From: Pirellulales bacterium
GTDB taxonomy: Bacteria > Planctomycetota > Planctomycetia > Pirellulales > JAICIG01
Length of the DNA stretch: 64,000 bases
Assembly (NCBI GenBank): GCA_035531595.1
Contig: DATKSN010000233.1
Span: 4,414-68,413, forward strand
Reading direction: 5' to 3'
The notes below the pieces were generated by a model. The model was not told where the DNA came from. It made no database searches and saw only the letters and a program-made list of their open reading frames with translations. Both the position numbers and the translations under genes were made by a program. Below, one piece after another: positions 7,103 through 62,900 of this stretch; position 1 is the stretch's first letter, and each line of letters starts with the position of its first letter.

Positions 7103-7255
7103 GTAGTAGGCACACTCCGTGTGCCGTAACCTCCGGCGAGTCGACGTCGCGACCGCATCAATCACGGCCTTCGCCGCGCTCCTGCGTGTGCCGCAACCTC
7201 CGGCGAGTCGACGTCGGCGGGCGGAAAGCTACGGCACACGGAGTGTGCCTGCTAC
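7103..7255. repeat. Long-range inverted repeat (26 nt arms, 1 mismatch) enclosing about 100 bp
   Basis: Arm 7103-7128 (gtagtaggcacactccgtgtgccgta) is complementary to arm 7230-7255 (tacggcacacggagtgtgcctgctac). Each arm also contains a 7-bp mini-hairpin (ggcacac/gtgtgcc). Confidence 0.8.
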
Positions 7256-10053: not shown

Positions 10054-10075
10054 TTCTTCTTCACCCGCAACCGAG

Positions 10076-10174
10076 AATGAGACGTTCACGGTGGCTGGGG
10101 CGGAGCCTAAGCGATGCCCCGGTCGCTATGTAGCCGGGGCATCGCTTACGCTCTGCCACCAGCCGGCGGGGGCT
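10076..10174 (+). repeat. Palindromic element family PAL, copy a (partial)
   Basis: Core: cacggtggctggggcggagcctaagcgatgccccgg...ccggggcatcgcttacgctctgccaccagcc. It starts about 20 bp after the SWIM gene stop. Confidence 0.8.
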
Positions 10175-38716: not shown

Positions 38717-39610
38717 TCAACAACTCAATTCAATCGCCACGATGGCGAGCTTGTGTTCGTCGGCGAAACGGATCATTTCGTCGGAGTCGACGATGATCGT
38801 CCGCCCGGCCTCGACGGCCAGGCACGCGGCGCCCGCCTCGACCATCGTTTCGAGCGTGCCCAGGCCAATGGTTGGTACGTCGAACCGCATGTCCTGCCGC
38901 GGCTTGGCCACCTTGACCACGGTGAAGCCACCCGCGCGGCAAAGCTGGCCTGCCCGCCGGATGCACTGGTCGGTGCCTTCGATCGCCTCGACCGCCAACG
39001 CCGTGCCGCCCATCACGGCCACGCTTTGGCCCACGTCGAGCCGGCCCAGTTCCTTGGCCAACTGCCAACCGAATTCGATGTCGTCGCGTTGCGCCGCGGA
39101 TGGGCCGCGCCGCGTGAGCGGTCCTCGTCGCACCAGCAACTCCGGGGCGAAATCGGTGGCCGGGACCATCTCGATGCCGTTGACGGCGAACGCCTCGACC
39201 ACGGCCAGAAGCAACGTATCGTCGCGGCGGTCGCGGCGGTTGAGCACGAAGTGCTTGAAAAACCGTCGCGCCGTCGGCCAATCGGGAAAGTGCTTGATCC
39301 AGAACCACGACTCGAACAACCTCAGCTTATGGATCTTGCCGGCCATCGTGGCCCGCCGCACGCCGTGCCGCTTGAAGAAGCGAATCGCGCGGTTCAGCTT
39401 GCCCAACCCCATCCACTCGAACTCGTCGCAAACGGCGGCCAACGCCGGGTCGGCATGCCCCTTGACCCCCATGCAATACGTCTGGCCTCCCTGACGACGC
39501 AGCGCCTCGGCGACGACGAAAGGGTATCGGCCCCAACCGGCCACTAGGCCAATCCGCGTCGGGGCCGACTTGGCGTCGTGGTTTCGAGTTGTCAGCACGT
39601 CGCTCGCCAT
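38717..39610 (-). CDS. lpxI: UDP-2,3-diacylglucosamine diphosphatase LpxI (DUF1009)
   Basis: IGLVAGWGRYP, DVGQSVAV, AVEAIEGTDQCIRRAG, VVKVAKPRQDMRFDVPTIG. Confidence 0.8.
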   Translation of the reverse strand: MASDVLTTRNHDAKSAPTRIGLVAGWGRYPFVVAEALRRQGGQTYCMGVKGHADPALAAVCDEFEWMGLGKLNRAIRFFKRHGVRRATMAGKIHKLRLFESWFWIKHFPDWPTARRFFKHFVLNRRDRRDDTLLLAVVEAFAVNGIEMVPATDFAPELLVRRGPLTRRGPSAAQRDDIEFGWQLAKELGRLDVGQSVAVMGGTALAVEAIEGTDQCIRRAGQLCRAGGFTVVKVAKPRQDMRFDVPTIGLGTLETMVEAGAACLAVEAGRTIIVDSDEMIRFADEHKLAIVAIELSC

Positions 39611-39611
39611 C

Positions 39612-39688
39612 GAGGTTAGAGGTTAGAGGTTAGAGGTTAGAGGTTAGAGGTTAGAGGTTAGAGGTTAGAGGTTAGAGGTTAGAGGTTA
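39612..39688 (+). repeat. Heptamer tandem repeat (gaggtta) x11
   Basis: Eleven perfect units counted from 39612. The array ends 1 nt from the lpxI start codon. Confidence 0.95.
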
Positions 39689-39721
39689 GGTTTTGAATCC
39701 TAACCTCTAACCTCTAACCTC
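39668..39721. repeat. Perfect 23-bp-stem hairpin formed by the last 3 heptamers and 3 inverted units
   Basis: gaggttagaggttagaggttagg - ttttgaat - cctaacctctaacctctaacctc. It is followed on the plus strand by tgctgttttt. Confidence 0.9.
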
Positions 39722-39763
39722 TGCTGTTTTTCTTCGCGCCGTTTGATTGCCCCGCTCAACTCA

Positions 39764-40819
39764 TCATGCCGCCGCATTGCGTCCACTCTTGCCGGCCTGC
39801 GCTTCGAGCCGCGCCACGGCGGCGCGCAGGGCCTTGAATTCCCGCCGCATGTCGGGCAGTTTGGCGACCGCGGCGAAGATCCGCTTCTGCTCTCGCTCGG
39901 GACGGGCGGGGGTGCCAAGCACGAAGCTGTCGGCGGCCACGTCGTTGGGCACGCCCGCCTGCCCTCCCAACACGGCGCGGTCGCCGATGTGAACGTGGTC
40001 ACGCACACCCACCTGGCCGGCCATCGTCACGTAGTCGCCCGTCGTGGTGCTGCCCGCGATGGCGACTTGCGAGCAGATCAGGTTGTGCCGCCCCAGACGA
40101 CAGTTGTGGGCGATCATCACCAGGTTGTCGATTTTGGTTCCCTCGCCGATCACCGTGGCACCGTAGGTGCCGCGGTCGACCGTGGTGCCGGCGCCGATCT
40201 CGACGTCGGCGCCGATCTCGACGTGGCCAAGTTGGGCCGAGAGTTGGTGCCGGCCCGCGACCAGCGTGTAGCCGAAGCCGAAGCCGCCCAGTACCACGTT
40301 GGCGTGGATCGTCGAGCGCGGGCCGACAACCGTGTTCTCGTAAAGCACCGCGTTCGAGAAAATCGTCACCTGTTCGCCCAGCTTACACCCCGCCATCACA
40401 TGCGCGCCGGCGTGGATCGTCGAACCGGCGCCGATTTCGACGTCGTCGCCGATCGTCGCGCCGGGGTACACGTCGACGTCGACGCCGAGCCGGGCCGACG
40501 GGCGGAGCACCGCCCGCGGACTGACACCAACGCGGCGGACCTCGCGGGGCGGGCGAAAATGGCGCACGATCGCGGCGAACGCCGCCGCGACGTCATCGAC
40601 CTGAATCGCCGCAAGTCCGTCGGGCGCCAGGCTACGGGGCACGACCACGGCCGAAGCGGCTGTTTGGCCCAGCCGCTGGGCCTTGTCGGCCGAATTGATG
40701 AAGGTGATCTCGCCCGGCCGCGCGTCCGACAAGGTGGCCGCGCCGGTAATCGCCAGGCCGCCGTCGCCCAGCGCGGCGCCGCCCACCCATTTCGCCAGTT
40801 CGGCCAGACTGACTGCCAT
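39764..40819 (-). CDS. lpxD: UDP-3-O-acylglucosamine N-acyltransferase
   Basis: Left-handed beta-helix hexapeptide repeats (IGDDVEIGAGSTIHAGAHV...). The N-terminus MAVSLAELAKWVGGA is typical of LpxD. Confidence 0.9.
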   Translation of the reverse strand: MAVSLAELAKWVGGAALGDGGLAITGAATLSDARPGEITFINSADKAQRLGQTAASAVVVPRSLAPDGLAAIQVDDVAAAFAAIVRHFRPPREVRRVGVSPRAVLRPSARLGVDVDVYPGATIGDDVEIGAGSTIHAGAHVMAGCKLGEQVTIFSNAVLYENTVVGPRSTIHANVVLGGFGFGYTLVAGRHQLSAQLGHVEIGADVEIGAGTTVDRGTYGATVIGEGTKIDNLVMIAHNCRLGRHNLICSQVAIAGSTTTGDYVTMAGQVGVRDHVHIGDRAVLGGQAGVPNDVAADSFVLGTPARPEREQKRIFAAVAKLPDMRREFKALRAAVARLEAQAGKSGRNAAA

Positions 40820-40904: not shown

Positions 40905-41060
40905 TATACTTCACGCGGCCATCAATGTGACATTTTGCCTCGAGAAAGTGGTGGCTGGTGGCAGAGCGTAAGCGATGCCCCGGCTAGATAGCGACCGAGG
41001 CATCGCTTACGCTCTGCCCCAGCCACCGTGAATGTCTCATTCCCGGCCGCGTGGAGTATA
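40905..41060 (-). repeat. Palindromic element family PAL, copy c (full length, about 156 bp)
   Basis: Outer inverted repeat tatacttcacgcggcc / ggccgcgtggagtata, and inner core gtggctggtggcagagcgtaagcgatgccccgg / ccgaggcatcgcttacgctctgccccagccac. Confidence 0.85.
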
Positions 41061-41315
41061 ACCATTCCGGGAGATGACGGCAAGATCAAGCTGGGGTGCC
41101 GCCGCTTACGCGGCTTGCTCAGACGTCGTGGGGATGTCGAAGATCGCGTTTCTCCGCGCCTCCGCCGCCCGTTCGCTTACGCGCATACCCGCGGATGACC
41201 CTTGATCGCATTGGCGATCGTCGATCAATCGGGTAGAATAACTGATGAGATTCCGTGCCAAGGGCTTTCGGCGGGTAAGGTCTGAATCGCTATCGAACCT
41301 GCCGCCGGCGAGGAG

Positions 41316-48131: not shown

Positions 48132-49562
48132 TTACCAGCGGAATTCGGCCCTGGTGGTCAAGCCGTCGAACGTGACCGTGTCGCTTCGGCTCGAGGTGTT
48201 GTTGGCATAACTGTTGTTTTGCACGGCGGCCATGAAGTTGTTGGGCGACACCGTGTTGAACCAGGCGGCGAAATAATAACCGCCGCTGATGCGAATCCGG
48301 CCGGTTCGGTTTTGCCAGCCTAGGCCGAGTTCGTATTCCAAAATCGGCACGGCGCGGCTGTCGTTCCAAGCGGCCATGGCCTGGAGCGCCTGGAAATTGT
48401 TGGTCTGGGAGTAGCCCGAGCGGAACGTGCCCACCAACAGGCTGGCAAAGCCCTTACTGTAGGCCATCAAGCCGCAGTTCCTGGCTTTGCGTTCGCCTTG
48501 CAAGCCGATGCGGGTGCCGAGACCGTCGAAGTTCACGTTGCTGGCAACATTGGTGACGCCAGGACCCAGCGGCTGGGCCTCGCGGAACGCCTCGTGCAGG
48601 TTGGCGTATCGCGTGCCGACGGTGTAGTTCAGGGCCCAGTTGTCACCGCCGCTCAGCAGGCGCATATAGTCGACGTCGGCGAACTGAAAGCGAACGTTGT
48701 AGCGGCCCAACGCGCCAAGGCTGTCGGAGACCGCGTTGTACGTCTGGGGCAGCGTGACCAGTGAGTGAACCGACAGAGGCGGGTTCGCAAACAGAGAACT
48801 GTTGGTTTCCGATTGGAAATAAGTATAGGTCGCGACGATGCTCGTACAGCGGTTCAATGCCTTGGTGAATCCGGCGCGGTAGCCGATCGAGTAATTTGGA
48901 CTGACCGTCGCGACTTGTCCGAAGGGCACGGCGGTCGCCGGGTCGGTGCCGTTGCGGACTTCGGCGTAGGCGACGTCGGCGCCGCGCGGACGCAGGTACA
49001 GCATTTCGGCGAAAACACTGTTCCTGTGTGCCCAGAAGGGGGAGCAACACGGCTTGCGGCAGCCGTCGCCACAACACGCCGGGTTGCCGCCTTGGGCCGT
49101 GTTGTCGGCGTCGTCGCCGGACCCATAGGCGGCGAACGGCTCGGCGCCGGTCGTGTACGGGGCATCGGAGTCGTCGGCGGGGTCGGCCAAAACGTCGCCG
49201 GGCATCTGGCCACTGCCGAGCATCTGGCCACTGCCCTGCCCCCACGGGTCGTACTTCCCTGGATGGCTAGCGTAGCGGTATCCATGCACGTTGCGCGAAA
49301 TGTCCGGCGACGCGGTGCTGGGGTTTTCGTCGTCGGCTGGATCATCGTCGCCGGTTGACTCATCGTCGGCGATTGAATCGTCGTCGCCGGTTGACTCATC
49401 GTCGGCGGCCGTTTGGGACGACTTGCCGGCCAGGGTGGCGCCCATCCATTGTCGGACGGGCGGGCTTTGCTGTTGCGCCCGTAACGGATGGCCTACGCAC
49501 AGCAGCGCCGCCACCGTCGTGGCAGTGAAAATGACGGTTTTCACGTCTGTACCCTTTCGCAT
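48132..49562 (-). CDS. Putative outer-membrane beta-barrel protein
   Basis: Start at ATG 49562 (MRKGTDVKTVIFTATTVAALLCVGHPLRAQQ signal). An acidic repeat (DDESTGDDD) and a Cys cluster (CCGDGCRKPCCSPFW) are present. Alternating beta-strand-like sequence ends in a C-terminal aromatic ...TRAEFRW. Confidence 0.65.
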   Translation of the reverse strand: MRKGTDVKTVIFTATTVAALLCVGHPLRAQQQSPPVRQWMGATLAGKSSQTAADDESTGDDDSIADDESTGDDDPADDENPSTASPDISRNVHGYRYASHPGKYDPWGQGSGQMLGSGQMPGDVLADPADDSDAPYTTGAEPFAAYGSGDDADNTAQGGNPACCGDGCRKPCCSPFWAHRNSVFAEMLYLRPRGADVAYAEVRNGTDPATAVPFGQVATVSPNYSIGYRAGFTKALNRCTSIVATYTYFQSETNSSLFANPPLSVHSLVTLPQTYNAVSDSLGALGRYNVRFQFADVDYMRLLSGGDNWALNYTVGTRYANLHEAFREAQPLGPGVTNVASNVNFDGLGTRIGLQGERKARNCGLMAYSKGFASLLVGTFRSGYSQTNNFQALQAMAAWNDSRAVPILEYELGLGWQNRTGRIRISGGYYFAAWFNTVSPNNFMAAVQNNSYANNTSSRSDTVTFDGLTTRAEFRW

Positions 49563-49893: not shown

Positions 49894-50334
49894 ATGAAAG
49901 CGAAGCTGTTTTTTTCGTTACTGGCCGTTGCCGGTTTCGTGCTGGCCAGCGCCAATAGCGCCAACGCCGGCCTGTTCCACCACAGGCGCGGTTGCTGCGA
50001 GCCGACCTGTTGCGAGCCGACCTGCGGCGCGCCGGCCGCTTGCGAACCCACCTGCGGCGCGCCGGCCGCTTGCGAACCCGCCTGCTGCGAGCCGACCTGC
50101 TGCGAGCCCGCCGGCTGCAATACGTGCGGCAACACCTGCTGCGGCAAGAAGCACCGGCTGCGGGGCTTGTTCCGCAAGCTGTGCAGCCGGAACAAGTGCT
50201 GCCAGCCGACGTGCTGCCAGCCGACGTGCTGCGAGCCAACGTGCGGCCAGCCGTCGTGCGCCGCGCCGTCGTGCGCCGAGCCGACTTGCGGCCAGCCGTC
50301 GTGCGCCGAGCCCACCTGCGGCGGCAACTACTAA
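49894..50334 (+). CDS. Secreted cysteine-rich repeat protein (C-[EQ]-P-[TS]-C pentapeptides)
   Basis: GGAGA RBS and signal peptide MKAKLFFSLLAVAGFVLASANSANA. The mature 121 aa contain 29 Cys by my count: CCEPTCCEPTCGAPAACEPTC...CCQPTCCQPTCCEPTCGQPSC... The underlying DNA is a 15-nt repeat, so all frames are open. A strong terminator follows. Confidence 0.75.
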   Translation: MKAKLFFSLLAVAGFVLASANSANAGLFHHRRGCCEPTCCEPTCGAPAACEPTCGAPAACEPACCEPTCCEPAGCNTCGNTCCGKKHRLRGLFRKLCSRNKCCQPTCCQPTCCEPTCGQPSCAAPSCAEPTCGQPSCAEPTCGGNY

Positions 50335-53411: not shown

Positions 53412-54638
53412 TTAATCGCATGCGAGTTGATCCCAGTCGATCGGTCGGTCCTTGTCGATTCGCGGCAGGTCAACGGCCATCGCCTCGGGGTACTTCTGCG
53501 CGGCGCCGGTGTTGAACACGACGACACGCTCGTTGGCAGCGATCCAGCCCTCGGCGGCGAGCCGTTCCAGCGCGCCGATGCAGGCGGCCGTTTCGGGACA
53601 GACGGAGATGCCTTCCAGACCGGCGCCCAAGTCCATCCACTGGCGGATGCGGCCCTCCTCGACGGCCACCGCCCGGCCGCCGCTGGCACGCACGGCGTCA
53701 AGGATCATGAAGTCGCCCACGGCGGCCGGCACGCGAATGCCGCTGGCAATGGTCTCCGCGCCGGGGAATGGTTCGGCGAAGCGCTGGCCGGAGTCGAACG
53801 CGCGCACAATCGGCGCGCATCCGGTTGACTGCACGGCCACCATTCTCGGCCGCCGCTCGTCGGCGAGCCAACCGAGCCGCGCCAGTTCGTCGAAGGCCTT
53901 CCACATGCCGATCAGGCCGGTGCCGCCGCCGGTGGGATAAAGGATCACGTCGGGCAAGCGCCAGTCGAACTGCTCGGCCAGTTCCAGGCCCATCGTTTTC
54001 TTCCCCTCGATGCGGTAAGGCTCCTTGAGCGTCGACATGTCGAACCAGCCGAGCCGCTCTTTTCCCTCGCGGACGATCCGGCCGCAGTCGGTGATCAGGC
54101 CGTTGACCAGAAAGGTTTTGGCGCCCGCCAGGCGGCACTCATACTGATTGATCGCCGGCGTGTCGGCGGGCATGAAGACGTAAGCCTCCATCTCGGCGCG
54201 CGCGGCGTAGGCGGCCATCGCCCCGCCCGCGTTTCCCGCCGTGGGGATCGCCACGCGCCGCGTGCCGAACCCTCGGGCCATCGTGATCGCCATCGCCAGG
54301 CCGCGGCTCTTGAAGCTGCCGGTGGGCAACCGCGATTCATCCTTGATCCACACGTCGTCGAGATTGAATCGCCGGCCCAGGCGCGGACAGGGAATCAAAG
54401 GAGTCATTGTCTCGCCCAGCGAAACGACCGCCTGATCTTGAGCCGGCGGCAGAAGCTCGCGGTAGCGCCACATTGTCGGCGGCCGGCGGGCCAGTTGCTC
54501 CTTGGTCAACGCTCGGCCCACGGCTTCGAGATCGTAGCGCACCCAGAGCGGCCGATCGCGGTGCAGGGTTTGCACCTGCCCAGCCGGCAGACGCGTACCG
54601 TCGAGCGCGCTTTCAAGGTGGGTGACGAAGGAAGTCAT
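53412..54638 (-). CDS. thrC: Threonine synthase
   Basis: PLP-lysine motif PTGSFKSRG, glycine-rich IPTAGNAGGA, YPTGGGTGLIG. Confidence 0.85.
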   Translation of the reverse strand: MTSFVTHLESALDGTRLPAGQVQTLHRDRPLWVRYDLEAVGRALTKEQLARRPPTMWRYRELLPPAQDQAVVSLGETMTPLIPCPRLGRRFNLDDVWIKDESRLPTGSFKSRGLAMAITMARGFGTRRVAIPTAGNAGGAMAAYAARAEMEAYVFMPADTPAINQYECRLAGAKTFLVNGLITDCGRIVREGKERLGWFDMSTLKEPYRIEGKKTMGLELAEQFDWRLPDVILYPTGGGTGLIGMWKAFDELARLGWLADERRPRMVAVQSTGCAPIVRAFDSGQRFAEPFPGAETIASGIRVPAAVGDFMILDAVRASGGRAVAVEEGRIRQWMDLGAGLEGISVCPETAACIGALERLAAEGWIAANERVVVFNTGAAQKYPEAMAVDLPRIDKDRPIDWDQLACD

Positions 54639-54663
54639 TGGTCATTGGTGAGTGGTCATTACT

Positions 54664-55779
54664 TCACAACCCCTCGTTCAATCCATGCAAGTCGTCCGGC
54701 AGGAAATATCCGTTCTCGCGGATCAAGACGTCATCGAACCAGATTTCGCCGCCGCCCCAGTCGGGCGTTTGGATCAGCACCAGATCCCAGTGGACGCGGC
54801 TGCGGTTTCCGTTGTCGCACTCGTCGTAGGCGTTGCCGGGCGTGAGGTGGATCGAGCCGCCGATCTTTTCGTCGAACAACGTATCGAGCATGGGCTTGCG
54901 GACGCGGTTGTTGCAGCCGATCGACCACTCGCCGATGTACCGCGCCCCCTCGTCGGCATCGAGCACCTGGTTCAGTTTTCGCTCCTCGCCGGCGCAGGTC
55001 GCACGCACGATCTTCCCCTGGCGGAACTCGAACTCGATGTCCTGAAAAACCGTACCCTGGTAGCGCGACGGGGTGTTGTAGCGGATCGTGCCGTTGACGC
55101 TGTCGCGCACGGGGGCCGTGAAGACTTCGCCGTCGGGAATGTTCCGCTGCCCGTGGCAAGGCCGAACCGGCATGCCGCGAATCGAGAACGAAACGTCGCT
55201 GCCCGGCGCGACGATCCGCACGCGGTCGGCCGCCTCCATGCGGCGCACCAGCGGTTCTTGGTCGCGGCCCATTTGCGCGTAATCGGCCGTGCAGACCGAA
55301 AAGTAGAAATCAGCGAACCCCGCGCCGCTCATGTTGGCCGCCTGGGCCATCGAGTCGGTCGGGTAGCGGAGCACCACCCAGCGGGTCAGCGGCACGCGCA
55401 CCTGGCTATGCACCGGGTGCCACCAAAGCCGCTGGTAGATGTCCATCTGCTCGATCGGCACGTCGGCGAACTCGCTGGAGTTGGCCGCCCCGCGGATGCC
55501 GATGTAGCAATCCATCTCCTCCATCCGCGCCTTTTCGAAATCGCCCGCCAGGCCGATCGCCGTCTCGCTCCCGGTGCGGTAGATCGCCCGCAGCACCGTG
55601 TTGCTTTTCCAGGTCACCAGCGGATGGGCGCCGCGCTCGGCCGCCAACTCGACCAGCCGGCAGACCAACGCCGGGTCGGGTAGATCGTAGGCCTCGATCA
55701 GCAGCTTTTCGCCCGCCTTGAGCTGGCAACTGTGGTCGATCAGGATCTCCGCGAGACGGTTCAAACGAGGGTCGGACAT
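54664..55779 (-). CDS. M29-family aminopeptidase (AmpS/PepS-like)
   Basis: Start at ATG 55779 (MSDPRLNRLAEILIDHSCQLKAGEKLLI). The C-terminal part has GGSIHLTPGNAY...VHWDLV. Confidence 0.8.
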   Translation of the reverse strand: MSDPRLNRLAEILIDHSCQLKAGEKLLIEAYDLPDPALVCRLVELAAERGAHPLVTWKSNTVLRAIYRTGSETAIGLAGDFEKARMEEMDCYIGIRGAANSSEFADVPIEQMDIYQRLWWHPVHSQVRVPLTRWVVLRYPTDSMAQAANMSGAGFADFYFSVCTADYAQMGRDQEPLVRRMEAADRVRIVAPGSDVSFSIRGMPVRPCHGQRNIPDGEVFTAPVRDSVNGTIRYNTPSRYQGTVFQDIEFEFRQGKIVRATCAGEERKLNQVLDADEGARYIGEWSIGCNNRVRKPMLDTLFDEKIGGSIHLTPGNAYDECDNGNRSRVHWDLVLIQTPDWGGGEIWFDDVLIRENGYFLPDDLHGLNEGL

Positions 55780-55939
55780 GGAGGCTCCGTCGAGTTGGCG
55801 GTGGCGAGGCAATCAGGCCATGATAGGGTATGGGCCGCGTTTGAAGAAGACCTTCATCCCTCACAACCCCTACCGCCGTCAATCTTCTTTGACCGGACGC
55901 CAGTCGTATCCTATAGAACTGCATAGGAATCGACTCCCC

Positions 55940-59925: not shown

Positions 59926-62900
59926 CCAAGTCGGCATCGCAAAGCGGATGGCGCTCGGGGTTCGTCACGGCGGCAACATGGTTGGCGCTGTCGGCCCTTG
60001 TATGGACCTGGACGGGGCCGGCCGCCGCATGGGCGCCGGGCGACGATACACCCGCCACCGCGGAACGCGCGGCTGAGCAAGATAACCCAACCGATGCGTC
60101 GGCCCCGACGAACGGGTCGGCCTCAACCGATGGGACGGCGCCAACGAACGGGTCGGACCCAACCGATGGGTCGGCAAACGCCGCGACCGGTTCCCAAGGC
60201 GCGTCAAAGCCGAAGGGCAACAGCGGCCGCGTGTTGTCGATCGTGGCGCTGGTGGCGGCGATCTTCATCATCCCGATGTTGCTGGGCAACTTCCTGAGCA
60301 AGAAGTTGAGGATGCCCGATCACGGCACGCGGATTTCCATCGTGTTGTTCGCGATCATCGCTTCGGTCGCGGCGACCCTGGGCGGTTGGCCACCCAAGCT
60401 CGGCATCGACTTGGGGGGCGGCGCGATCCTGGTCTACGAGGTGAAGGACAAAAGCTTCAAGGAAATGGACAAGCTGGTCGGCGCCGTCCTCAAACGCGTC
60501 AACCCCGACGGCCTCAAGGAGGTGAATGTTCGCCCTTATGGCGAGCACGAAATCGAAATCATCATTCCCATGGCCGACGAGGCCGAACTGGCGCGGATGC
60601 AGAACATCATCAGCCAGCAGGGAACGCTCGAGTTTCGCATCGTGGCCGACGCCCAGTTCCGTGAGGATGAAGAGATCATCAACCTGGCCAAGGACGACCA
60701 GTTCAAGGACGAAAAAGACGTCATCGACGCCGACAAGGACGGCGCGACGACCGTGGTCGCTCGCTGGGTGCCGGTCGTGCCCGACGAGGTCGGCTCGATC
60801 GTGTCGCAGCGCGGCCATCCGGTTCGCGAGAACAAAAAGGGCGAGACGGAAGTGCTGGTGCTGATCGACAAGCAGAATGTGACCGGCGAATTCTTGACCA
60901 GCGCCACGGCCGGCAACGACGAAAACGCCCAGCCCTGCGTGCATTTCCGCTTCAACCCGGCGGGGGCCAAGCGGTTCGGCCGGCTGACCTCGAACAACCT
61001 GCCTAACCCGATCGACGAAAAGCAGGCCCATAAGCTGGCCATCATTCTCGACGGCCGCTTGCACTCGGCCCCCTTCATTCGCAGCCGCATCGACGAGTTG
61101 GGGCAGATCACCGGCCGCTTCACCGCCGAAGAGGTCGGGCGGTTGGCCGACGTGCTCACCGCCGGCAGCCTGCCGACCACGCTCCGCGAGGAGCCGACCA
61201 GCAGCATGCACATCGGGGCGACGCTGGGCGAGGACACGAAAACCAAGGGCGTCTGGTCGATGATCTGGTCGACCGTGGCCGTCGTGATCTTCATGGTGTT
61301 CTATTATCGCTTCGCCGGCATCGTGGCCAACCTGGCCTTGCTGTTGAACGTGTTGTTGATCGTGGCCTTCATGATCCTGTTCAACGCGGCCTTCACCTTG
61401 TCGGGCCTGGCCGGCCTGGCCCTGACCGTGGGCATGGCCGTCGACGCCAACGTGCTCATTTACGAACGGATGCGCGAGGAGATCTCGCGCGGCGCCACGT
61501 TGCGGATGGCCATCCGCAACGGCTTCGAACGCGCGACGACGACGATCGTCGACGCCAACGTGACGACCCTGATTTCGGCCGTCGTGCTCTGGTTCATCGG
61601 CACCGATCAGGTCAAGGGTTTCGCCGTGACCTTGATTCTGGGGATCGTCATGAACCTGTTCACCGCGATCACCTTCACGCGGCTGATCTTCGACATCGCC
61701 GAAAAACACCGCTGGATCAAGCAGCTCAAGATGTTGAGGGTCATGGAGAAACCCAACTTCGACTTCATCGGCAAGCGCAAGCTGGCCATCAGTTTTTCGC
61801 TGCTTCTGATCGGCGCCGGGCTGGTGGGCGTATTCCTGCGCGGCCGCGGCTTATTGGACATCGACTTTACCGGCGGCGTTTCGGTGCAAGTGCTGTTCGA
61901 GAAGAAACAGGAAATCGGGTACATCCGCGACCGGGTGAACGACTTGCCGGACGTGACCGTGCAATCGGTCGACTTGGGCGACGAGGAGAAAGGGCATCGT
62001 TTCCTGATCGTGACGTCGATGTCGGAAATCGACGAGTCGAATCCACCGCCGAGCGGCCCGAAAACGAACATCACCCTGGTGGAGCGGACGCTCAAGGATG
62101 TTTTCAACGACGCCGACCATCGGCTGGCGTTCAATCACTTGACGTGGAGCGGCCTGGCGCCGCACGGTGGGTTGAAACCGGCGACCGAAGCCAAGCCCCC
62201 CGACGATGCCAACCCTCCGGAAGCCGACGGCGCCGACGCGGGGCGAGCGGGGGGCGTTAGCCCCCTGTTGGCGGCGGCGTTGGACCCAGATGCCGACGCG
62301 GGGCGAGCGGGGGACGTTAGCCCCCTGTTGGTGGCGGCTGGATCCAACCAGGACGACGCCGCGACCATCGACGAATCGCCTTTGGAAAAAACCAAGCCTG
62401 CGAATCAGGCGGGCAGTCCGGCGACCAAGAAGGCCGGCGCGAAGCGAGATCTCTACGCCGGCGGCACGGTGGTGACGCTCACGTTTGCCGACGGCGACCC
62501 TGATGACGCGACAACCAAGCCCACGCAAGTCAATCACGACACTTTGAGCGGAGAGATCAAGCGAGCGCTCGTCGCCGGCGGCTTTTCGGAAAACGTCGCG
62601 TTCAAGTTGGACAACCCCGAGTATGAAGCTGGCAGCGACAAGCGTTTCGCCCAGTGGACGTTGACGATCGGGCTGACGGGCGAGCCGACCGAGTCGTTGC
62701 TCAAAGAGATCAAGCGGAAGCTGGCTCAGGAGCCGTTCTTCCCCTCGTCGAACCGAGTGGGCGCGAGCGTGGCGTTCAACACCCAGGCCCAGGCCACCTT
62801 CGCGCTCCTGGCCAGCCTGGTGATGATCGTGCTCTACGTCTGGATCCGCTTTCAGCAGGTGAGCTTCGGCTTCGCCGCGGTGTTGGCCTTGGTGCATGAC

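Follow-up and report, generated by a model that had tools for sequence, protein, structure and literature searches.

Introduction

To our knowledge, the record of heptanucleotide repeats in bacteria goes back to 1990, and they have no accepted function or origin. The short tandemly repeated repetitive (STRR) sequences of cyanobacteria, which are tandem heptanucleotide repeats, were reportedly described by Mazel in that year. In this study, we analyzed a stretch of 64,000 nucleotides (nt) from a Pirellulales bacterium of the Planctomycetota (assembly GCA_035531595.1, contig DATKSN010000233.1, positions 4,414 to 68,413 of the forward strand), hereafter referred to as the window. The spacer between its lipid A genes lpxD and lpxI is occupied for the most part by 11 tandem copies of the heptamer GAGGTTA, which reads TAACCTC on the opposite strand, and by a short inverted arm built from the same unit.

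One of the closest described systems is found in Haemophilus influenzae, in which the 5′ untranslated regions (UTRs) of hmw1A and hmw2A contain (AUCUUUC)n repeats. Base pairing between these repeats and a G-rich arm creates a long hairpin that RNase III cleaves (PMC12721329). Expression of the hmw genes is inversely proportional to repeat length (Rapun-Araiz, 2025, NAR, PMC12721329), and changes in repeat number require transcription, folding, and RNase III (PMC12721329). The lpx element is similar in that a G-free, pyrimidine-rich heptamer (UAACCUC compared with AUCUUUC) lies in the transcribed leader of a gene, in that repeats and a G-rich arm together make a long hairpin while surplus units stay outside the stem, and in that arrays of at least eleven repeats occur in nature. 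The hmw stem, however, is imperfect and cut on one strand, whereas the lpx stem is perfect over 24 base pairs (bp). The hmw repeats are located in a promoter-proximal 5′-UTR with a hairpin that ends 54 nt before the ATG, whereas the lpx element is intercistronic and its array touches the ATG. Furthermore, hmw encodes an adhesin of a host-adapted pathogen, whereas the lpx element belongs to a lipid A gene of an environmental planctomycete.

Intergenic direct repeats of a second heptamer, TAACTGA, were described by MacGregor (2015, PMC4679880) in marine Beggiatoaceae, Cyanobacteria, and Bacteroidetes. They are found in forward orientation a few nt from start codons, where they overlap the ribosome-binding site, and S1, Csp, or CsrA have been proposed to bind them (PMC4679880). 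According to Mrazek (2007), to the extent that this work is summarized in PMC4679880, seven nt is the most abundant unit length among long repeats, repeats of 5–11 nt are typical of large genomes of non-pathogens, and classic contingency loci use units of 1–4 nt. Similar to the TAACTGA repeats, the lpx unit starts with TAAC, stands in forward orientation near a start codon in place of the Shine–Dalgarno (SD) region, is predicted to be unstructured, is favored over related or scrambled heptamers, and is scattered among phylogenetically distant taxa. It differs from them in its sequence, TAACCTC, of which only TAAC is common to both, in its 11 copies compared with mostly 2–6, in its occurrence in another phylum, and in its inverted arm and hairpin, whereas the genome studied by MacGregor contains 169 direct sets and one indirect set.

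The lpx array also resembles the STRR sequences and other long simple-sequence repeats in being composed of tandem heptanucleotide units in non-coding DNA, a type found in large genomes of non-pathogens with period 7 as the commonest, although STRR sequences were defined in heterocystous cyanobacteria with other units. Intercistronic hairpins that act as RNase III sites or stability elements include those of phage T7 early mRNA, the intervening sequences (IVSs) of 23S rRNA, and repetitive extragenic palindromic (REP) elements. The lpx hairpin is likewise a long stem between co-transcribed genes; its arms, however, are a microsatellite, it has no conserved dispersed sequence, and its cleavage is only proposed here. 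The lpx element is therefore distinct from the described systems in its unit, arm order, perfect stem, intercistronic position, contact with the AUG, and host.

Results

A heptamer array and hairpin at the lpxD–lpxI junction

The feature between lpxD and lpxI is very probably one case of a widespread class of heptamer arrays that has received little study. Such arrays occur across phyla in intercistronic spacers ahead of start codons with the pyrimidine-rich strand as the sense strand, and they often have an upstream G arm with which a long hairpin is closed. Both genes are located on the minus strand. The upstream cistron, lpxD (39764..40819, with the stop codon TGA at 39766–39764), encodes UDP-3-O-acylglucosamine N-acyltransferase (TIGR01853, 318 bits), and the downstream cistron, lpxI (38717..39610), encodes a member of the UDP-2,3-diacylglucosamine diphosphatase family (NF047836, 147 bits, which is below the cut-off of this model). 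Pfam LpxI_N and LpxI_C are recorded for a protein that is identical to the LpxI of the window and named from a Pirellulales bacterium, in agreement with both the gene names and the planctomycete origin given by an initial annotation made from the sequence without database searches.

The spacer is 153 nt in length, of which 111 nt make up the repeat and hairpin and 41 nt are non-repeat sequence. On the plus strand, the CAT corresponding to the lpxI ATG (39608–39610) is followed by a single c at 39611 and then by 11 perfect GAGGTTA units (39612..39688), so the array ends 1 nt short of the start codon. Next come GG (39689–39690), TTTTGAAT (39691–39698), CC (39699–39700), and an inverted arm of three perfect TAACCTC units (39701..39721). 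The non-repeat segment (39723..39763) begins with TGCTGTTTTTCTT on the plus strand and directly follows the lpxD stop codon on the lpx strand. The lpx transcript thus reads from the UGA of lpxD through 41 nt of non-repeat sequence, the 5′ G arm (GAGGUUA)3-GG, the loop AUUCAAAA, CC-(UAACCUC)11, and one G to the AUG of lpxI. This anatomy, which was correctly described in the initial annotation, is evident from the sequence itself, from Tandem Repeats Finder (TRF), which reported a period-7 array of 11.1 copies and a second one of 3.3 copies (both with 100% match), and from a search for the 14-mer GAGGTTAGAGGTTA with at most two mismatches, which gave 12 matches in the window compared with 0.03 expected, all 12 of them within this feature.

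The array is non-coding, and each of its six reading frames is interrupted by stops, which are TAA for one strand and TAG for the other. Showing a head-to-tail 7-nt unit beyond chance expectation at a non-coding location, which is how heptanucleotide long simple-sequence repeats are defined, the feature almost certainly belongs to this repeat class. The GC content is 46% for the spacer and 42% for its repeat-and-hairpin part compared with 64% for the window. All units are perfectly homogeneous, suggesting that the array is probably young.

Six contigs on record encode an identical LpxI, and the DNA of three of them, which were assembled separately (JGI 3300031670, ENA ERZ27256814, and ERZ27256801), was compared with the window. 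The same 11+3 arrangement is present in all three, which makes an assembler artefact, a possibility that had been raised for this array, unlikely. The ATG at 39610 aligns with the start codon of lpxI in relatives, and the LpxI segment ahead of the conserved RIG motif is of the same length as theirs. The identical LpxI is annotated by NCBI with 293 residues, four fewer than the open reading frame (ORF), which fits a GTG four codons downstream (39598–39610); the alignment with the relatives favors the ATG at 39610 over this GTG as the probable start.

Related Pirellulales lack the repeat

In all four related Pirellulales loci, lpxD adjoins lpxI and the repeat is absent from the junction. The two loci with the most similar LpxI proteins, L126 (87% identity) and L128 (86%), have 4-nt junctions of TAAcgaaATG and TGAcgatATG, respectively. 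The gap at locus P0005 (80%) is about 25 nt according to gene coordinates, and at L129 (73%) the two genes overlap by ATGA. In alignments, the stop codon of lpxD and the ATG of lpxI match in position between the window and these relatives, none of which has the 41-nt non-repeat segment. These short gaps and the overlap indicate that the ancestral state was a tightly coupled stop/start junction, and approximately 149 nt were inserted or expanded recently in this Pirellulales lineage at a site that normally measures 0–25 nt. The initial annotation overlooked that the whole spacer is a recent insertion of this kind. With the ancestral 4-nt junction known, effects on the coupling, processing, and translation of a lipid A gene become measurable against natural relatives that are free of the repeat.

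Predicted structure of the spacer RNA

RNAfold predicts a hairpin at 39667..39722 (minus strand) with a perfect 24-bp stem, formed by arms at 39699–39722 and 39667–39690, and an 8-nt loop at 39691–39698 (−59.4 kcal/mol, z = −5.1). The three heptamers nearest the loop form the 3′ arm and the remaining eight are left as a free leader. Nine perfect pairing registers are possible on paper for the inverted arm, and the hairpin had accordingly been thought to slide. In the partition function, however, the proximal register accounts for 99.5% of the ensemble and the next for 0.3%; the GG/CC closing pairs and the 8-nt loop are exclusive to the proximal register, which explains its dominance. We therefore rejected a sliding hairpin on thermodynamic grounds.

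The leader that runs from the hairpin to the AUG of lpxI (39611..39666, minus strand) is 56 nt in length and consists of eight UAACCUC units, which contain no G, and the single G before the AUG; its mean predicted unpaired probability is 0.73. The lpxI gene has no SD sequence, for which the array leaves no room. Long perfect duplexes can be cut by RNase III on both strands, and the modeled 24-bp stem would be long enough for such a substrate. In a search of Rfam, no family reached its gathering score; the matches, all to generic miRNA-precursor hairpins, scored 36 bits or less compared with gathering scores of 73–100.

The unit is widespread in bacterial genomes

An exact scan for (GAGGTTA)3 with one genome per species identified at least 120 genome loci, compared with about 0.3 by chance, an estimate based on the 21-base query and the collection size. 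A hand count of record titles among the matches listed assigned approximately 55 to Bacteroidota, 24 to Acidobacteriota, 13 to Cyanobacteria, and 8 to Planctomycetota; Proteobacteria were very few, Actinobacteria were not represented, and several genomes hold 2–6 GAGGTTA arrays each. Planctomycetes, Bacteroidetes, and Cyanobacteria have been named as phyla with small fractions of SD genes (PMC5397173), and three of the four main phyla with the unit (Bacteroidota, Cyanobacteria, and Planctomycetota) are thus low-SD phyla according to this source. We did not find a tandem string of this unit in a bacterial context by literature search. Because the unit recurs across phyla, the lpx array, which had been regarded as unusual for a planctomycete, is less so than a pathogen-style contingency locus would be.

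In the 854 kb surrounding the matches listed, 233 perfect arrays of at least three copies have period 7, and every other period from 4 to 12 is represented by at most 10. The units of 101 of these 233 arrays are other than GAGGTTA, which indicates that heptamer arrays are a general property of these genomes. GAGGTTA is itself a preferred unit: viral contigs contain 25 loci compared with 4, 4, 3, and 4 for four composition-matched shuffles (about six times commoner). Since TAACTGA has 107 loci in the same viral collection, TAACCTC is a favored heptamer to a lesser degree than TAACTGA.

Very long arrays of the same unit were observed in a prophage-like contig (L143, 4143–4853, approximately 94+8 units), in Mucilaginibacter sp. 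SMC90 (L037, 6371–6622, 36 units), and in an Acidobacteriaceae metagenome-assembled genome (MAG; L111, 3040–3253, 30.6 units). Planctomycetes also contain compound arrays whose units differ by single-base steps (L026, 7472–7640; L011, 1101–1323; L071, 300–450), including TAGCCCC, TAGTCCC, TAATCCC, and TAACCTC; TGACCTC; TAGCCAC; and the 8-mer TAACCTCC. Those of L026 and L071 lead straight into a start codon. The stepwise relation of these units suggests that compound arrays may arise by mutation plus expansion.

Placement and orientation at gene starts

At the genome loci listed, an ORF of at least 100 amino acids starts within 30 nt downstream in 25 of 117 arrays when TAACCTC is the sense strand (15 of these starts are ATG), compared with 8 of 114 (two ATG) when GAGGTTA is the sense strand (Fisher p = 0.002). 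A second implementation of the same test gave 32/118 and 10/113, respectively (p = 3e-4). In about 15 of the 25 start-adjacent arrays, an ORF on the same strand ends 0–90 nt upstream, i.e., the array occupies an operon junction like that of lpxD–lpxI. The sense strands of 16 arrays of other heptamer units beside start codons contain 35 C and 19 G, a depletion of G that is suggestive only.

A second junction of the window contains a 25-nt spacer (54639–54663, minus strand) made of the degenerate heptamers TGACCAC, TCACCAA, and TGACCAA, which continue up to the ATG; it separates a peptidase M29 gene (54664–55812, minus strand) from a gene for a PALP enzyme (53412–54638, minus strand). The unit of this mini-array is a rotation of TTGGTCA, which we take to be the cyanobacterial STRR2. 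Together with this degenerate 3-unit array, the lpx array is the only heptamer array in the window.

Inverted pairs and hairpins

Among the matches listed, an inverted partner lies no more than 150 nt away at 26 genome loci and at three viral loci. The G arm precedes the C arm in all of them (29:0), or in 40:0 with tolerant matching. The order reads identically from either strand and hence belongs to the element itself, whichever way it is transcribed. An ORF start is located beside a C arm in only about half of the inverted pairs, so a rule by which the C arm faces a start codon does not fully explain the order, for which we can offer no explanation.

Hairpin versions are found chiefly in Acidobacteriota, where 15 of the 24 loci listed have one, and also in Planctomycetota. 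Two Acidobacteriota loci, L115 and L030, have a hairpin at the atpA–atpG junction with 76% nt identity; both retain four G units, and the loop has diverged. In L107, a hairpin is located at the junction upstream of a uvrD-like gene, which was recognized by eye from its N-terminus. In a Thr-Tyr-Gly-Thr tRNA cluster of a Pyrinomonadaceae MAG (L105, 2695–2781), the spacer that separates tRNA-Tyr from tRNA-Gly is filled by a heptamer hairpin with a stem of about 34 bp (−62.3 kcal/mol, z = −9.5). A viral contig with 67% GC (L131, 10613–13831, equivalent to L149, 4897–8111) contains four to five GAGGTKA/TMACCTC hairpins that punctuate consecutive junctions of co-directional genes, similar to hairpins that serve as intercistronic RNase III sites or stability elements. 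A loop of the form GAAAGYCGTTC is common to three of these viral hairpins, and an SD-like sequence and then ATG come after at least three of them.

In a Pirellulaceae chromosome (L041, 5783–6225), inverted arrays of GTGGTTA/GAGGTTA and TAACCTC/TAACCAC bracket a gene of PF05635 (132 bits), the 23S-rRNA-intervening-sequence-protein family. This is a stem-and-ORF layout like that of rRNA IVSs, here located outside rRNA. The inverted pairs of L052 and L096 enclose 200–600 nt. An element carrying such a four-helix-bundle/23S-IVS-protein gene was considered as a candidate and rejected, since the gene is near an array in only two of the 120 loci listed (L041 and L091). The hairpin core GGTTAGGTTTTGAATCCTAACC had no match in metagenome contigs and, in 276 fetched loci, occurred only in copies of the window contig. 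Given the absence of this core elsewhere in the collections searched, a discrete mobile hairpin resembling dispersed REP or miniature inverted-repeat transposable elements was rejected as well.

Three testable regularities can be stated for the unit: it is favored over its shuffles, its pyrimidine-rich strand faces the start codon, and its inverted pairs have the purine-rich arm first.

Copy number at an orthologous junction

Eight related prophage-like contigs (GC 41–44%, 81–99% identical) carry (TAACCTC)n between the stop codon of a putative tape-measure protein, identified from its sequence, and the ATG of a 79-amino-acid ORF, with 0–3 nt between array and ATG in the cleanest cases. At this orthologous stop–array–ATG junction the unit numbers are 5.4, 10.3, 11.0, 9.4+4.9, and approximately 94+7.7, and the downstream ORF is intact whether 5 or about 100 units precede it. 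Copy number is thus hypervariable in another lineage carrying this unit, and the range from 5 to about 100 within one prophage-like family indicates that the class is hypervariable in the same layout as that of lpxD–lpxI. The description of the lpx array as a slippage-prone type of repeat is upheld by these contigs. For the lpxD–lpxI junction itself, a search for copy-number variants in the metagenome collection gave no match to the junction pattern.

Discussion

A proposed explanation for the lpx element

We propose that a heptanucleotide repeat with a short inverted arm was inserted or expanded at a formerly tight junction between the lpxD stop codon and the lpxI start codon, and that this insertion would abolish stop/start coupling on the lpxD–lpxI co-transcript. 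The perfect 24-bp stem might serve as a target for double-strand cleavage by RNase III or as a stability element that separates the two cistrons. Translation of lpxI could proceed independently of an SD sequence from the unpaired, G-free (UAACCUC)8 leader, a mode of initiation common in low-SD phyla, and slippage may alter the number of units and thereby tune lpxI output without switching it on or off. The package of a young heptamer repeat inserted at a coupled junction plus these functional steps seems to us reasonably probable. The functional steps at lpxD–lpxI, taken by themselves, are more tentative and fall somewhat short of probable.

Several points weigh against this explanation. Every functional step draws on sequence and on analogy, and the hmw analogy is inexact in its geometry, since the hmw repeats form the 5′ arm with a non-repeat G-rich region on the 3′ side, whereas the G arm of lpx is 5′ and made of the complementary heptamer. 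Some three quarters of the arrays at other loci are not next to a start codon, and many may thus be neutral; start-codon adjacency is also based on crude ORF calls. The orientation bias is not reproduced in viral contigs, either for TAACCTC (5/26 vs. 8/28) or for TAACTGA (23/135 vs. 34/141). The at least 120 loci are a sample of genomes rather than a census. Finally, the three assemblies match the window at 100% identity across 7 kb, i.e., they are clonal, and are therefore uninformative on copy-number variation.

Alternative explanations

Insertion and expansion of a neutral or selfish microsatellite that is tolerated in the spacer, with hairpin and leader invisible to selection, is rather unlikely but far from negligible. 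The array was gained in a single lineage, its homogeneous units suggest youth, most arrays of the unit elsewhere lie away from start codons, the gene downstream of the prophage-like array is intact at n = 5 or 100, and hairpins are found even between tRNA genes, where translation plays no part. A 4-nt junction split by 153 nt with a 24-bp stem would, however, be expected to alter coupling and mRNA structure, and neutrality does not readily account for the roughly sixfold preference for the unit over shuffles, the biased orientation at genome loci, the strict 29:0 arm order, or the atpA–atpG hairpin, whose arms have been kept at 76% nt identity with a diverged loop. A phase-variable contingency locus, as the initial annotation had suggested, in which frequent slipped-strand changes would switch or strongly modulate lpxI and generate lipid A heterogeneity in the population, is quite improbable despite the fact that a perfect 11-unit array is a good substrate for slippage and that the copy number of the unit spans 5 to about 100 among related prophage-like genomes. 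The array is located outside the ORF, where a 7-nt step is unable to shift the reading frame, and outside any spacer between promoter hexamers, as the promoter scan found no promoter-like site in or around the repeat. It has 11+3 units in all three (clonal) assemblies, and lpxI is generally known as a gene of the core Raetz pathway rather than of surface decoration. The hmw heptamer is a proven 5′-UTR case of graded phase variation (PMC12721329), whereas, in the summary of Mrazek (2007) contained in PMC4679880, long repeats of 5–11 nt are typical of non-pathogens and contingency loci have units of 1–4 nt. The lpx array is thus probably not an on/off switch.

The element might also be the footprint or miniature of a larger element that ended in inverted heptamer arrays, with GAGGTTA reading inward, and that has lost its cargo. 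A fixed arm order of 29:0 (40:0 with tolerant matching), pairs that bracket cargo (the PF05635 gene of L041 and the 200–600 nt of L052 and L096), and the foreign GC content of the spacer would fit such an origin. It is nevertheless very unlikely, as the hairpin core is confined to copies of the window contig, loops differ among loci, IVS-protein genes are as rare near the arrays as noted above, and no transposase or target duplication was seen. Hardly credible is a bidirectional or antisense terminator, in which the hairpin and the plus-strand T-run would stop antisense transcription into lpxD or the hairpin would end lpxD transcription. The stem is stable, contains GC, and is followed by TGCTGTTTTTCTT on the plus strand; the T-run, however, begins 5 nt past the stem, no U-run follows the hairpin on the lpx strand, and a scan of the feature for intrinsic terminators made no call. 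Moreover, no plus-strand gene ends at the feature, and similar hairpins elsewhere lack T-runs and are located inside operons. Taken together, the initial annotation was sound on the anatomy, the genes, the origin, and the type of repeat, and its sliding hairpin, contingency switch, and antisense terminator were not supported.

An explanation broader than our proposed insertion at a coupled junction would regard GAGGTTA/TAACCTC hairpins and arrays as a selected RNA element for operon punctuation, found across phyla of low-SD bacteria (Acidobacteriota, Planctomycetota, Bacteroidota) and of their phages. It would combine a purine-first stem processed by RNase III, a G-free microsatellite leader as a ribosome landing pad for SD-independent initiation, and tuning of leader length by RNA-dependent growth and shrinkage of the repeat as a generalization of the hmw mechanism, with the arm order arising from function or from a dedicated mechanism of end addition by which the repeats are deposited. 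We regard this as unlikely. If an hmw-type mechanism of RNase III and repeat length were true here, it would represent a general tuning of operon genes in low-SD phyla and not a speciality of pathogens. Loading of Rho at the C-rich array, binding of CsrA to the GGA of the loop, and pairing of UAACC with helix 45 of 16S rRNA are mentioned here as ideas only.

Flanking genes and other repeats in the window

The LpxI of the window ends with ...IVAIELSC (38717–38740), whereas the proteins of the relatives run about 20 residues further (...ETPCESRER). Synteny stops right after lpxI, which is followed by a sigma-70 gene in the window and by a HEAT-repeat gene in the relatives, and the upstream DUF1501 gene is inverted in the window relative to L126 and L128. 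Given these rearrangements on both sides, the lpxD–lpxI pair sits between rearrangement points.

A palindromic repeat approximately 94 nt long is present in two copies, at 40953–41046 and 10071–10164, which are 94% identical to each other. This palindrome is predicted to form a hairpin with about 33 bp (−82.9 kcal/mol, z = −10.6), and one of its copies separates a promoter-like site (41083..41055, minus strand) from the start of lpxD. Together with the heptamer hairpin, the lpx operon thus has long hairpins both before lpxD and between lpxD and lpxI. Other tandem repeats reported by TRF in the window are located at 7118–7252 (period 67), 62234–62359 (period 60), 49327–49408 and 60085–60175 (both period 18/36), and 49993–50322 (period 15/30/45).

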